DNA from: a virus
Lineage: Duplodnaviria > Caudoviricetes
IMG/VR virus record: IMGVR_UViG_3300031759_000908
Span: 1-30,559 of that record
DNA: 30,559 bases
Reading direction: 5' to 3' (one strand)
The notes under the pieces were generated by a model. That model saw only the letters and a program-made list of their open reading frames with translations, ran no database searches and was not told where the DNA came from. Numbering within the stretch: position 1 is the stretch's first letter; the number at the start of each line of letters is the position of its first letter. Made by a program: the position numbers and the translations under genes. Shown piece by piece: positions 5,787 through 17,843 of the stretch.

Positions 5787-6323
5787 CTACTTTTGAGCAG
5801 TTGTCAATTGTTTTTTTGGAGCAGGATCGCTACTGTAAAAGACGTGACTACCTATACGTGCAATACGCATTAATCCCCAATTTGGGTGCGTTTGTGTATT
5901 GTGAAAGTACAGTGCTTCAGCCATGACTTCATTGTCTAAGCGTAGACCTTGATACATAACTTCTTCTGCCACTGCTAGACTAGCCTGCCAGCGGTCGCTG
6001 ACAAACTTAACTGGTGCAGGTGGGTTGCATACCCACGAAAATTGACATACAGTTTTAACCGTAGGTTTATTTTCTTTGACCACTGCTACTTGAGTTTTTT
6101 GATTAACTACTCCGCAGACAGTTTTAGGAAACTTTTCGTCTTCAGCACGATTAAGAGTAACCTGCGCTACTGCTATCATACCTTCACGGGTTTCTAGGCC
6201 TGCTTCGTAATAGATATTTTTAGCCAAACATAATAGTTGACTGTCTTGTTTAGGTGTTGCCAGTGCAGTACTGCACTGTAGAACTGCCAAGGACATTATT
6301 GCCCAGGTAACTAGTATTCGCAT
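5787..6323 (-). CDS. SleB/Hydrolase_2 family cell wall hydrolase with N-terminal signal peptide
   Basis: CLAKNIYYEA, AVAQVTLNR, FPKTVCGVV, CQFSW, ALYFH, IGSHVFY; AGGAGG SD. Confidence 0.9.
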   Translation of the reverse strand: MRILVTWAIMSLAVLQCSTALATPKQDSQLLCLAKNIYYEAGLETREGMIAVAQVTLNRAEDEKFPKTVCGVVNQKTQVAVVKENKPTVKTVCQFSWVCNPPAPVKFVSDRWQASLAVAEEVMYQGLRLDNEVMAEALYFHNTQTHPNWGLMRIARIGSHVFYSSDPAPKKQLTTAQK

Positions 6324-6359
6324 ACTTTTCCTCCTGTTAGTGTTGTCTTGCTGGTTGAA

Positions 6360-6560
6360 CTAGTTTGGTGCCAGACCTGTTGCTTGATTACGGTCTATAT
6401 AAAATTGACAGGGCTTTGGTAATTCTCTAACCATTACTAAATCATAATCGTTAAAGTCTGCGTTATTCACTGACATGCTACTGGTGTGTCTATGGCACGT
6501 ATCGCGTTTATCGCAAGCTCGCCCCGCACAGTAATACTTCTCCTGTGTAGTTTGTGTCAT
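6360..6560 (-). CDS. hypothetical Cys-rich small protein
   Basis: 66 aa, GGAGG SD, C-x4-C-x4-C-x-R-H ... C pattern. Confidence 0.7.
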   Translation of the reverse strand: MTQTTQEKYYCAGRACDKRDTCHRHTSSMSVNNADFNDYDLVMVRELPKPCQFYIDRNQATGLAPN

Positions 6561-13428: not shown

Positions 13429-13995
13429 TTATAGTTTACCTACTAGATCCAAACTTGGTGCTAGTGTAGCCGCACCTTCTTGCCATTTAGCTGGGCATAC
13501 TTCACCTGGATGCTCACGTGTATACTTTGCCGCTTTAACTTTACGTAGCAACTCTTTTGCGTCACGGCCAACACCGCCTGGATTGATTTCAATGATTTGT
13601 ACACGACCGTCTGGGTCAATAACAAATGTACCACGGTCAGCAAGACCTTCACCTTCAATTAGTACACCAAACTGTGTAGCCAATTGATGATTAGGGTCGC
13701 CAATCATTGTGTATGTGATGCCGCGGATTGTGTCTGTAGCATCTGCCCATGCTTTGTGTACAAAGTGTGTGTCTGTGCTTACGCTGTATACTTCTACCCC
13801 CATAGCTTTAAAATCACTTGCATAAACGTCTTGTAGGTCTGCTAGTTCTGTTGGGCAGACAAATGTAAAGTCTGCTGGGTAAAAGAACACAATGCTCCAT
13901 TTACCTTGTAGATCTTGCTCTGTAACTTCTACAAACTTGCCTTGACTGTATGCTTGCGCTTTAAACGGTTGTACCTCTTTGCCAATTAAACTCAT
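13429..13995 (-). CDS. ahpC: alkyl hydroperoxide reductase subunit C (typical 2-Cys peroxiredoxin)
   Basis: [46 protein letters not shown]; AGGAG SD. Confidence 0.97.
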
Positions 13996-14145: not shown

Positions 14146-14217
14146 TTACTTGTTCATTACATACATTGTTACTTCAAACCCAAAACGCATTTCAGTAGCT
14201 GCTGGTTTAGTCCACAT
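14146..14217 (-). CDS. pqqA: pyrroloquinoline quinone precursor peptide PqqA ([23 protein letters not shown])
   Basis: 23-aa peptide with MWxKP...GFEVTxY containing the E-x-x-x-Y core; AGGAG SD and its own terminator. Below the ORF-track length cutoff. Confidence 0.95.
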
Positions 14218-14340: not shown

Positions 14341-14517
14341 TCAATTTACGATGTCAGCATATTTTAACCTAAAGTAAGTTTCTGTTGGGCCAGGTTCTAT
14401 AATATCTATAGTATAGCCACGAGAACTTTTATGAAACGGACCGTGTTTAATGTTATTATCTTTGATGATCTGTTGAAACTCACGTAGCTCGTTGTGCTTA
14501 ATAGTTATCGTCATCAT
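14341..14517 (-). CDS. 58-aa hypothetical protein (MMTITIKHNELREFQQ...YFRLKYADIVN), not in the ORF track
   Basis: Open frame overlapping the end of the upstream gene and filling the gap to the pqqA leader. Confidence 0.65.
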   Translation of the reverse strand: MMTITIKHNELREFQQIIKDNNIKHGPFHKSSRGYTIDIIEPGPTETYFRLKYADIVN

Positions 14518-15064
14518 CGTCTAGATCCTCGTCTTCATACTCCCAAATTTCTTCACCGCTGGCATAGTCAAAGTAGTATTTCTCGTTAGGTACTAACAAG
14601 CGGAATTGACCAGCATACTTAAGAGCCGCTATGAGTGCTTCATTTTTATCTGTTAGGTCACAGATAATAAAGCTACTACCACAGCCACCATGGACATGTT
14701 TGATTTCGCTGTGTTGAAATTCATCTGCTAATAAAGCATTATGAAAATTTCCACGATTGCCGGCAATGATACGATTGGCAATGAATGGATGTGGTAAACG
14801 TCTATCTAATAGGCCTAACTTACTAAGTGTGGCATTATTATCACGGTCAATACTTAACTTACAATGCTTAAATTTTAGGGAACCCTTGGTATGCGGATTG
14901 TCACTCGTTTCCTTTGTGCTCCAAGGAATTTCTGCTGATACATGATTTACATAAAATGTAACACCATGACTTTTGATACACCACATTGGAACCGTTGGAT
15001 CCTCTAGGTGTTTTTTGTTAAAATGAAAAACTACGTCTTTACAACTATACTCAATCTATAACAT
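14498..15064 (-). CDS. hypothetical protein, 188 aa if the in-frame TAG at codon 3 (15056-15058) is read through
   Basis: AAGGAG-9 nt-ATG TTA TAG ATT GAG TAT AGT TGT AAA GAC..., continuing in frame without further stops into the 14498..14986 ORF; the internal ATG at 14986 has only a weaker, more distant GAGG. Confidence 0.7.
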
Positions 15065-15068
15065 TTTA

Positions 15069-15260
15069 TTACTCTCCTTGTTTATCAAGATACTTTCTTG
15101 TATCTGCTCTGGTATTTATACCGTACATTTCTGCTGTTACTAAACTAGACAAATCCTGTGGAGAACAAACTTCTGCAAATCCTACTCCTAACTTCTTAGC
15201 ACGTGGTACTACTTCGTTAAGTAAAATCTTTGCTGTAAGTTGAGCGTATTGTTTGTCCAT
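15069..15260 (-). CDS. 63-aa hypothetical protein, weak resemblance to the GatB helical (Yqey-like) domain
   Basis: AAGGA SD immediately after the tRNA CCA; helical pattern A..LL.EV.......G.......SP..L..LV.....G. Confidence 0.65.
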   Translation of the reverse strand: MDKQYAQLTAKILLNEVVPRAKKLGVGFAEVCSPQDLSSLVTAEMYGINTRADTRKYLDKQGE

Positions 15261-15270
15261 ATAATCCTTT

Positions 15271-15344
15271 TGGTGCAGTTGACGGGAGTCAAACCCGTTA
15301 CCAGGAGTTTTAGAGGCTCTTGCTATTCGATCAGCTTCAACTGC
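15271..15344 (-). tRNA. amber-suppressor tRNA (anticodon CUA), 74 nt, encoded CCA
   Basis: GCAGTTG/CAACTGC acceptor stem, A73 and CCA; D stem GCTG/TAGC; anticodon loop CT-CTA-AA (stem has A27.C43 and C31.A39 mismatches); T arm ACGGG-TTTGACT-CCCGT. Confidence 0.85.
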
Positions 15345-15353
15345 AATACATAT

Positions 15354-15382
15354 ATTATATAATTAAATTATTTCATTGTCAA
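15354..15382 (-). promoter_or_regulatory. perfect-consensus sigma70 promoter for the tRNA operon
   Basis: TTGACA-17 nt-TATAAT, ending 9 nt before the tRNA 5' end. Confidence 0.88.
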
Positions 15383-15858: not shown

Positions 15859-16449
15859 TTACTTGAATGAGTATGTGTAGTTAACACCAACTGTATCGTA
15901 TGTGCTATCACCACGTTCCATAGCATACTTAATACCTACAGCATGTTCTGGAGTAATTGCGTATTTTGCACCAATTGAAGTTTCCCAAGTTTTGTAACCA
16001 TAACCTGTATGGCCATCTAGGTTTTCATTGAATGGTGTACGTAGACGTTCTTGAACAAACGCAGTTAGGCCAGGCATAACTGTGTATTTTGCGCCTACAT
16101 CAGCACGGTAGTAGATAAAGTTTGTAGTTGATTTATCTTTCTCACCAACTGCTAGCCCTGCGTATGGAGTAACACCATACCATGTGCCAATATCCTTAAC
16201 TGCACCAATCTGTACTAGACCTTCGTGTGCGCCACCGTTAACAGTTTCATCTTCCATACGACCTTCAACTTTCCAGCCGTTGCCATAGTCATGGCCTAGT
16301 GTAATACCATAAACTGTATGGTTGTTTGTTGAATTAACTTTGTCTTTAAAGTCAATTGATGGACTAGCATAGTTATATGCTCCGTCAGCAAATGCTGATA
16401 CTGATACAAACAATCCTGCTAATAGTGTTGCTAATAAAGTTTTTTTCAT
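15859..16449 (-). CDS. outer-membrane beta-barrel protein with signal peptide
   Basis: MKKTLLATLLAGLFVSVSAFA signal peptide, alternating amphipathic strands (TPYAGLAVG, IGAKY), aromatic C-terminus VNYTYSFK; start at 16449. Confidence 0.85.
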   Translation of the reverse strand: MKKTLLATLLAGLFVSVSAFADGAYNYASPSIDFKDKVNSTNNHTVYGITLGHDYGNGWKVEGRMEDETVNGGAHEGLVQIGAVKDIGTWYGVTPYAGLAVGEKDKSTTNFIYYRADVGAKYTVMPGLTAFVQERLRTPFNENLDGHTGYGYKTWETSIGAKYAITPEHAVGIKYAMERGDSTYDTVGVNYTYSFK

Positions 16450-16556
16450 TACTCTTTCCTCTTGGTTAATTTGTTGCATAAAAGCCACAAAATAAAATTT
16501 TGTTGCCTTTTAGCCACGTTTTTATTTAGTCTTTTTAGTGTTGCAGATATATTACA

Positions 16557-17843
16557 TTAGTACCTGTATGTTTCTGGTTTGTAAGGACCATCAATACCAA
16601 CACTGATATAATCAGCCTGCTCATCTGTTAAAGTAGTTAGTTTAGCACCAATCTTATCTAAATGCAACCTTGCTACCTTTTCATCTAGATGTTTTGGTAA
16701 AAGATATAACTGACCAATTTCATAATTGGTATAGTTAGTGTACATTTCAACTTGTGCTAATACTTGATTAGTAAAGCTGTTTGACATAACATAACTAGGA
16801 TGTCCTGTAGCACAGCCCAAGTTTACTAGTCGACCTTTAGCTAAAATAATCAACTTGTGTCCACCTGGCATTGTAACGTGATCAACCTGTGGTTTGATTT
16901 CATCCCACTCACAGTCTTTAAGACTAGCAATGTCAATCTCGCTGTCAAAATGTCCAATGTTACAGATAATAGCATTGTTCTTCATACGTTCCATGTGTTC
17001 GTATGTAATAACATCAATATTACCTGTGGCTGTTACAAAGATATCTGCTTCACTGGCCGCTTCATCCATGGTAACCACACGATAGCCTTCCATAGCCGCT
17101 TGTAGGGCACAGATTGGATCAATCTCAGTTACCCAAACCTGTGCTGATAATGCACGAAGTGCGGCTGCTGATCCTTTGCCCACATCGCCAAAGCCCGCTA
17201 CTACTGCGATCTTACCTGCAATCATCACATCGGTAGCACGTTTGATACCATCTACTAATGACTCACGGCAACCATATAAGTTATCAAACTTACTTTTAGT
17301 TACGCTGTCGTTAACGTTGATAGCACGTAGTTTAAAACTACCGTTGGCAATAGCTTCGTTGATCTTGTGAATACCTGTGGTTGTTTCTTCAGTAACACCA
17401 TAGATACCATCCAGTAGTTCAGGATAGTTAGTGTGAATATACCAAGTTAGGTCATGGCCATCATCTAAGATCATGTTAGGTACCCAACCCTCTTTGCCAC
17501 TAATAGTCTGCTCAATACACCACCAGTATTCGTCTTCTGTTTCACCTTTCCAAGCGTAGACAGGAATACCCTGTTCAGCTAAGGCTGCTGCCGCATGGTC
17601 TTGTGTGCTAAAGATGTTACAACTTGACCAACGCACTTCTGCGCCTAAGGCCACTAGTGTTTGTACTAAGACTGCTGTCTGTATAGTCATATGTAATGAC
17701 CCAACAATACGTGCGCCCTTTAGTGGTTGCTGATAGTACAGCTCATCTTTGATTGCCATTAGACCTGGCATTTCTGTTTCAGCAATAGCTATTTCTTTGT
17801 GGCCCCACGCGGCCAAACTAATATCTTTTACTTTATAATCCAT
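16557..17843 (-). CDS. ahcY: S-adenosylhomocysteine hydrolase
   Basis: [65 protein letters not shown]. Confidence 0.97.

Follow-up and report, generated by a model that had tools for sequence, protein, structure and literature searches.

Why should a phage gene carry a stop codon at its third codon and lie near a tRNA whose anticodon can read that stop? The question is raised by a 30.6-kb virus record (the whole stretch analysed here, hereafter the window), the sequence of which is present in lake and freshwater metagenomes. The gene begins ATG TTA TAG and its frame is open to position 14498. A sequence-only reading had proposed that expression of this one gene may depend on the phage's own suppressor tRNA. 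Judged by sequence comparison, the proposed dependence survived those refutations that could be tested, namely sequencing error, a downstream start in the homologues and lack of co-occurrence of stop and tRNA. We call the stop a gate and the gene behind it the FHFNK gene.

Layout of the locus, its tRNA and its protein

Promoter, tRNA, 63-aa ORF, Shine-Dalgarno sequence and TAG all hold their positions on recheck, and so does the open frame (Table 1). The TAG is no assembly error, as a contig from run X17 spans 14939-15380 with 0 differences. Another from run X12 spans 14995-15267 with 1 difference; both runs possibly sampled the same population as the window. Among the listed runs containing the window stretch there was no RNA dataset.

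Table 1 Features of the gated locus in the window
Feature	Position	Strand	Remarks
Sigma-70-type promoter, TTGACA-17-TATAAT	15354..15382	-	12/12 consensus; 10 nt 5' of the tRNA
tRNA with CUA anticodon, CCA encoded	15271..15344	-	Found by Rfam, and by ARAGORN at lowered threshold
Anticodon CTA, reads UAG	15311..15313	-	
63-aa ORF between tRNA and gated gene	15069..15260	-	No family match
Shine-Dalgarno sequence AAGGAG	15074..15079	-	9 nt 5' of the start
ATG start codon of the gated gene	15062..15064	-	
Gate, in-frame TAG as codon 3	15056..15058	-	Next base A; TAG at 79/80 viral and 118/119 metagenome loci
Gated gene, two domains and acidic tail	14498..15064	-	188 codons with the TAG read through
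N-terminal beta-rich "FHFNK..KETP..KGS" domain	14810..15055	-	About 80 aa; no named family
C-terminal domain	14540..14794	-	Ferredoxin-like (ACT/RRM-type) arrangement; weak structural likeness only

In the window, tRNA and gated gene may be co-transcribed, judging from the promoter and from the absence of a terminator-like site between them. Co-transcription is not conserved in relatives. Sequences like the -35 and -10 elements lie directly 5' of most related tRNAs (judged by eye), and purine runs resembling a Shine-Dalgarno sequence precede the ATG of the related gated genes. The window gene also has a GAGGA 13 nt 5' of its second ATG. Of 102 loci, 23 have the tRNA up to 200 nt upstream of the gene and 33 up to 600 nt; at 31 it lies farther upstream, and at 15 it is downstream. 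In relatives, tRNA and gene are not always neighbours, nor is their order constant. The 63-aa ORF, which the sequence-only reading had placed between tRNA and gene, is a passenger: it occurs only in four near-identical loci (L001-L004) among 272 loci and genome stretches searched. Because distance and order vary and this ORF is confined to four loci, the module consists of the tRNA and the gate, and the operon layout is no part of it.

The tRNA(CUA) of the window is real. It matches the Rfam family RF00005 with 45.8 bits (E 8.8e-9; cut-off 29) and shows the features of a suppressor-type tRNA, with a cloverleaf, CUA centred in a 7-nt loop, U33, A37, a CCA end and a promoter. ARAGORN, which the sequence-only reading had named as a check, misses it at default settings and finds it at -ps90 with a score of 94.8. 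The default miss is due to the A27.C43 and C31.A39 mismatches in the anticodon stem and to D and T loops that deviate from the consensus; as a sign that no tRNA exists it was rejected as a threshold effect. The tRNA has G1-C72 and A73, starts with GCA (G3 is not conserved), is unpaired at 27.43 and 31.39, lacks G19 and C56 and is more degenerate than most of the relatives' tRNAs. Among 58 distinct tRNAs from L001-L091, 54 start with GCG and four with GCA, nearly all end in A-CCA, and 50 share the 31.39 mismatch; the acceptor stems of CUA tRNAs differ in other clades. Over all loci the mismatch is found in 73 of 123 CUA tRNAs, compared with 6 of 198 sense tRNAs from six long records. Decoding of a UAGA quadruplet, considered because of this open pair, was rejected, since no frame shift occurs and the base at +4 is G or C in other gates. 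In databases the suppressor tRNAs are filed as Pyl, Arg, Ser, Phe or undetermined. In one subgroup (L037, L045, L046, L057, L064) a conserved non-coding stretch lies directly 3' of the suppressor tRNA.

According to the accessible text of PMC9976931, E. coli amber suppressors with U35 and A73 insert lysine, and G73 shifts insertion toward glutamine; by the same rules, A73 and G1-C72 favour lysine over glutamine. By analogy with E. coli, lysine is therefore the predicted residue at the gate in the window's clade, given U35 and A73.

The gated protein belongs to no named family in PHROGs, Pfam or NCBIfam. The ESM Atlas gave no usable match, RecJ_OB at 0.86-0.87 with low shared counts being a lead only, and a Foldseek search of the whole-protein model against the PDB gave no match at E 0.001. 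The N-terminal domain is confidently modelled (pLDDT 91.5) as a beta-rich fold of about 80 residues with invariant aromatic and basic positions; searched alone, it reached a best Z of 3.3 and no solved match. The best structural match of the C-terminal domain is found among ACT/RRM folds (Z 5.2, rmsd 3.8, 74 residues aligned). Matches in a viral structure library were confined to uncharacterised phage proteins. In other phages the FHFNK domain occurs alone or fused. A profile search of 1.84 billion proteins returned 152 clusters, and in the seven of these that were scanned no link to a named family appeared besides probable chance or fusion matches. The C-terminal domain alone gave two matches, one of them a fragment of the same family.

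The surroundings of the locus hold several further features. A 23-codon gene for a PqqA precursor peptide with its own Shine-Dalgarno sequence lies at 14146-14217 (-) (TIGR02107, 40.4 bits; PF08042, 42.4 bits), and this phage-borne cofactor precursor hints at a PQQ-using host. A 58-aa ORF at 14341-14517 (-) overlaps the end of the gated gene; it matches no family, and within the near clade 13 further loci or genome stretches have a relative of it. At 6323-6560 (-), a 66-aa ORF ends with a TAG that shares the frame of the following gene and precedes the start of that gene by 12 codons. Read-through would fuse the two, and the arrangement may be chance. Host-like genes near the module (13429-13995, 15859-16488, 16557-17843 (-)) include a peroxiredoxin and an outer-membrane beta-barrel below cut-off, and one that we take to be an S-adenosylhomocysteinase.

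Conservation of the stop and of its partner tRNA

In one genome, a stop at codon 3 resembles a dead gene, and sequencing error or a pseudogene could account for it. Among the best 80 of 251 confirmed viral loci (49-100% identity), 79 have an in-frame TAG, which stands directly before the aligned isoleucine in 73 and a few codons earlier in six; L011 is the sole locus without it. Metagenomes were searched with a DNA pattern of the residues behind the stop that is blind to the stop itself, in 27 of 64 parts. Of the 119 loci found, 118 were preceded by TAG and one by ATG; CAA and CAG did not occur. The TAG cases include 102 distinct ones, in all of which the TAG is in frame with an ATG, as codon 3 in 63 cases, 4 in 18 and 5 in 19, and as codon 2, 10 or 11 in one each. 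Together with the zero-difference contig, these counts show that the TAG is neither a private mutation nor an error. Further loci without a gate are the metagenome locus L451 as well as L169 and L176. With the gate kept across hundreds of loci and synonymous change behind it, we regard error or pseudogene as practically negligible.

The homologues include the IEY..FHFNK segment, and the N-terminal extension, which had been called protein-like, is indeed coding over the 23 codons from the stop to the next ATG. Six invariant residues (F10, H11, F12, N13, K14, D19) lie in this stretch, which the domain model folds into a strand and a helix (pLDDT 88-91). Mismatches behind the stop number 247/145/721 by codon position, mostly third, in 64 related loci that are not independent of each other. 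The stop itself floats in a variable N-terminal tail, outside the conserved domain. The FHFNK gene family is routinely mis-annotated, being missed, shortened or given a false glutamine. Glutamine as the residue aligned to the TAG, suggested earlier as an example, finds no counterpart in the DNA: as none of the 119 metagenome matches has a glutamine codon at this site, the "Q" in database homologues is most likely a product of a code-15 gene caller and was rejected as evidence.

All of the 137 gates counted are followed by a purine, versus 80 of 177 terminal TAG stops; in the group of the cultured phage Phosso, 13 of 14 gates are. Purines at +4 raise amber suppression, as stated in the accessible part of PMC6266110. 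Avoidance of A at +4 was looked for among the terminal TAGs and not found (53 of 177 have A), which leaves no sign that the phage's own stops are protected from its suppressor.

The partner tRNA travels with the gate in relatives, as the proposal of dependence had led one to look for. A CUA tRNA was found at 68 of the first 80 loci and at one more by profile; of the 11 loci left, seven have little upstream DNA and four have full 3-kb flanks. In the larger set, the fetched flank contained a CUA tRNA at 102 of 124 gated loci, and at 80 of the 93 with 2.9 kb on both sides. The other 13 well-flanked loci lack it in the fetched DNA, and one of them is Agrobacterium phage Atu_ph07, which has a UCA tRNA elsewhere.

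The genome is not globally recoded, as the sequence-only reading had held. TAG ends 8 of 40 ORFs picked in the window, the seven terminal TAG stops listed earlier are real, and in the window and six long records TAG is the terminal stop of 5-38 genes per record. Simple ORF tiling of the same seven sequences gave no clear rise in coding density with TAG as sense codon (code 11 versus TAG open: window 0.870/0.833, G001 0.879/0.894, G002 0.920/0.917, G003 0.909/0.913, G004 0.903/0.889, G006 0.852/0.867, W01 0.871/0.891). Gates were searched with a scan for a Shine-Dalgarno sequence, ATG, at most 10 codons, a stop and a long frame, which sees gates within 10 codons of the start; it replaced a first scan with a codon-usage filter that had missed four known positives. 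In G001-G004, W01 and the window, the gated FHFNK gene is the only candidate with a homologue elsewhere, and for G006 the scan returned the Pth2-like gene. G001, G002 and G006 also gave candidates with no homologue elsewhere, either three with TAG or several with TAA/TGA. There is one gate per genome in these six records and the window. In place of the internal TAGs in many genes that mark code 15, each record has one 5'-gated gene with the stop within 10 codons of its start. A first move toward reassigning TAG, as had been suggested, is a poor fit: very distant phages retain the single gate, and it has not spread. In G006, ARAGORN also reports a putative tRNA with a UUA (ochre) anticodon at 188241-188313 (score 105).

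Gates on Pth2-like genes and in cultured phages

Distant relatives with a single domain have loci in which the FHFNK gene is ungated and the TAG is found instead on the gene directly upstream. This upstream gene matches PF01981 (PTH2) above the gathering cut-off in six of seven cases and in two of three more; the misses match weakly. After three of 180 examined loci without the motif had been dropped and identical ones collapsed, 133 distinct loci remained. A script placed the gate on the FHFNK gene only in 91, on the Pth2-like gene only in 20, on both in 13 and on neither in nine. By inspection of the last group, Phosso (L093) proved to be gated; at L132, L136 and L174 a second ATG closely follows the gate; the TAG of L137 has no ATG in range; L125 is truncated; and L169 and L176 have no gate. 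In L142, a short ORF with TAG as codon 3, about 400 nt 5' of the FHFNK gene, precedes an ungated Pth2-like gene and is possibly a leader-peptide form of the gate. Even when ungated, the FHFNK gene adjoins the suppressor.

The four long records of the window's own clade (G001-G004) contain no Pth2-like gene, and therefore the Pth argument reaches the window gene only by association. The window protein itself gave no PF01981 match, and hhalign against the gated Pth2-like proteins gave a probability under 1% for either domain. The GK lysine motif of Pth2, which we take to be catalytic, is present in Phosso-type genes and missing from 34 of the 35 motif strings listed. Because most Pth2-like genes lack it, hydrolase activity is not assured. 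In XacN1 (ORF364, L301 964-1803), L300 and L303, the gated gene encodes an HD-motif domain (by eye) fused to the Pth2-like domain. Endonuclease-like inserts lie directly behind the gate in L098 (3847), L146 (4311) and L153 (4202); they appear to have captured the gated 5' end, and a second copy of the gate stands before the host gene. In L093, L094 and L144, a helical protein is a possible third component; its gene separates the Pth2-like gene from the FHFNK gene, or it is joined to the FHFNK domain.

Thirteen cultured phages have the arrangement of stop gate and suppressor. In Rhizobium phage RHph_I1_18, the unannotated FHFNK gene has TAG as codon 6 and lies directly before the CUA tRNA. A near-start stop in Pth2-like genes occurs in Phosso, GAP32, fHe-Yen9-04, ME3, Arash, RsoM2USA, XacN1 (ORF364), Xoo-sp13, RAS14, Catera and Myrna, each of which has a CUA tRNA (RAS14 by pattern only). 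Four huge metagenomic phages have gated Pth2-like genes too. One or two members per group were inspected, of 27, 247, 234 and 35 phage records returned. Ungated are the degenerate copies in RaK2 and Hallingskeid and the canonical Pth2 genes XacN1 ORF295, RsoM2USA_157 and SCTP-2 326. RaK2 has no CUA tRNA, and Hallingskeid and SCTP-2 gave no convincing match to one by pattern. In Catera and Myrna the start and TAG stand 6-7 nt past a -10-like hexamer, which suggests from sequence that the gated message may be leaderless; GTG follows the stop directly. In Phosso (L093 379-1538), the annotation leaves one CUA tRNA, which has C1-G72 and G73, undetermined; two genes further on, the core of a short class II aminoacyl-tRNA synthetase is encoded, so that this phage may charge one suppressor itself; a second CUA-loop match is found at W02 446762.

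Reading of the gate by the tRNA is best supported by a matched change of stop and anticodon. In Atu_ph07, codon 7 of the Pth2 gene is an in-frame TGA, with no other start before the conserved part. The accessible text of PMC6102473 gives a UCA tRNA as the only suppressor of this phage; we confirmed the UCA tRNA, looked for a CUA tRNA and found none. In the subgroup of Atu_ph07 and L475, 12 of 14 loci have TAG and two have TGA; ten of the TAG loci have a CUA tRNA in the flank and none has a UCA tRNA. L475 combines TGA with a UCA tRNA 4.3 kb away, and its sister L474 combines TAG with CUA. In a tree of 15 such proteins and three outgroups with long branches, the two TGA genes stand apart, and a single clade for them is rejected (p-AU 0.0004). 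The sequences thus indicate that stop and anticodon switched together in two separate lineages.

A mechanism without read-through would have the ribosome translate a two-codon minigene, stop, and restart at the following ATT or at a later ATG, while the tRNA serves another purpose. The codon after the TAG of the FHFNK gene is ATT, ATC or ATA in 95 of 104 gates, ATT is a rare start codon, as in infC, and several genes, Pth2-like ones among them, have a second start close behind the stop (1-6 codons past it in XacN1, Xoo-sp13, Catera, Myrna, L132, L136 and L174). However, other gates are followed by AAC, AAT, ACT, ACC, AAG, GTA, GTT, GAA or CAA with no start before the domain. Moreover, re-initiation needs neither a common frame nor a given stop, yet the TAG is nearly always in frame and TGA occurs only with a UCA tRNA. 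We consider re-initiation quite unlikely. The bar minigenes of phage lambda resemble the gate in that ATG, codon and stop begin the message and in their link to peptidyl-tRNA hydrolase (Pth), but they have neither a long conserved frame behind the stop nor a partner tRNA, whereas the gate has both.

Could the TAG instead encode a special, pyrrolysine-like residue that the protein needs? ARAGORN and GenBank label these tRNAs "Pyl", and Phosso has its class II synthetase-like gene two genes past one CUA tRNA; however, the label follows from the anticodon alone. tRNA-Pyl has G73, a short variable loop and a long anticodon stem, whereas the window tRNA is an ordinary cloverleaf with A73, a 5-nt variable region and a 5-pair stem, and RF00005 is its best Rfam match. 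Pyrrolysine and selenocysteine decoding likewise use a special tRNA at the stop codons of a few genes in genomes with the standard code, but the residue is a needed catalytic one at a fixed site, served by dedicated synthetases or factors. The gate, in contrast, floats over codons 2-11 outside the domain and is absent from the FHFNK gene in at least 20 loci, and the TGA/UCA switch argues that the residue is unimportant. A special residue is thus very improbable. From the sequence evidence as a whole, we conclude that the codon-3 stop is probably a gate opened by the phage's own tRNA(CUA).

Possible purpose and relation to known systems

We propose that the tRNA(CUA) would be made early from its sigma-70-type promoter, charged by a host synthetase, with lysine as the predicted residue, and would compete with RF1 at the UAG, where the purine after the stop would favour read-through. 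As the stop floats in a variable tail, the identity of the inserted residue would be immaterial. Without a functional suppressor tRNA the protein would not be made. Likely targets of the gated products are the suppressor itself or peptidyl-tRNA, so that product amount would follow the level of suppression. A comparable coupling exists in prfB, where an internal stop links RF2 to termination: this gene is autoregulated via an internal UGA and a +1 frameshift when RF2 is low. In both systems an early in-frame stop lets a translation-related gene report on termination; however, prfB escapes by frameshift, whereas the gate keeps start, stop and domain in one frame and its key would be a dedicated tRNA with an anticodon that co-varies with the stop.

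Feedback on tRNA handling is our tentative choice for the purpose of the gate, and it is favoured because the only gated gene of relatives that has a name encodes a Pth2-fold protein and because the FHFNK gene adjoins the suppressor when ungated. A timer or dose limiter, by which tRNA maturation and partial suppression delay and thin the output of a protein that harms host or phage if early or in excess, seems somewhat unlikely. It would suit a strong Shine-Dalgarno sequence followed by a stop at codon 3, and the open 31.39 pair could mark a suppressor kept weak on purpose; for recoded phages, the accessible text of 10.1101/2021.08.26.457843 proposes that a change of code sets the timing. A weaker ribosome-binding site or a later promoter would be simpler, though, and a timer gives no reason for the gating of just these genes, one for a Pth2-fold protein and one that adjoins the suppressor even without a gate. 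Less likely still is a sensor of host tRNA attack or co-infection, in which cleavage, acetylation or failed charging of the suppressor switches the gated gene. Gates often lie inside tRNA clusters, and Pth reverses aminoacyl-tRNA acetylation of the TacT type (accessible part of 10.1101/2021.12.20.473312; this concerns bacterial Pth, not Pth2). Yet damage to the tRNA would silence the gene at the very moment at which a repair enzyme is called for, and the gated protein matches no defence-related family in PHROGs, Pfam or NCBIfam. Taken together, the sequences make a suppressor-gated gene with feedback as its proposed purpose the likely best overall explanation.

Suppressor tRNAs are already known from recoded phages that use code 15 with TAG as glutamine, such as crAss-like, Lak and Agate phages (Borges et al., 10.1101/2021.08.26.457843), and gene control by change of code has been proposed for them (10.1101/2021.08.26.457843; PMC13037316), according to the accessible text of these sources. 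As there, the window encodes a CUA suppressor tRNA that is proposed to unlock stop-bearing genes in a standard-code host. In contrast to code-15 phages, in which the accessible text places stops throughout many late structural and lysis genes and reports a density that rises under the other code, the window shows no density rise, and one small gene linked to tRNA handling has one stop at its very start, with lysine predicted and not glutamine. Orphan suppressor tRNAs were noted in XacN1 (PMC5852040), Atu_ph07 (PMC6102473) and RsoM2USA (PMC8504454). The accessible parts of these papers examine or count ordinary terminal stops and do not mention a 5' gate, and the XacN1 authors state that the target of the suppressor could not be identified (PMC5852040). 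All three phages have a 5'-gated Pth2-like gene whose stop matches these same tRNAs. No description of one 5' stop paired with a phage suppressor turned up in the literature searched; as far as this search reaches, such a gate is undescribed.

With some hesitation, we speculate that large phages of Proteobacteria, of Bacteroidota-like hosts and of mycobacteria may share an old circuit, in which a private suppressor and one or two tRNA-handling proteins made only via it would keep read-through of the stop at a level of their own setting during infection. The FHFNK domain would be its core factor, and lock and key would together have been re-cut from UAG to UGA at least twice. The gate would give the orphan suppressor tRNAs of standard-code jumbo phages a concrete target. 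As a natural lock of a single codon, paired with its key, it is accessible in cultured phages that grow on laboratory hosts, such as Catera on M. smegmatis, Phosso on S. meliloti, RHph_I1_18 and Atu_ph07. A suppressor tRNA could in this way stay under selection in phages well ahead of genome-wide recoding, or in its absence.
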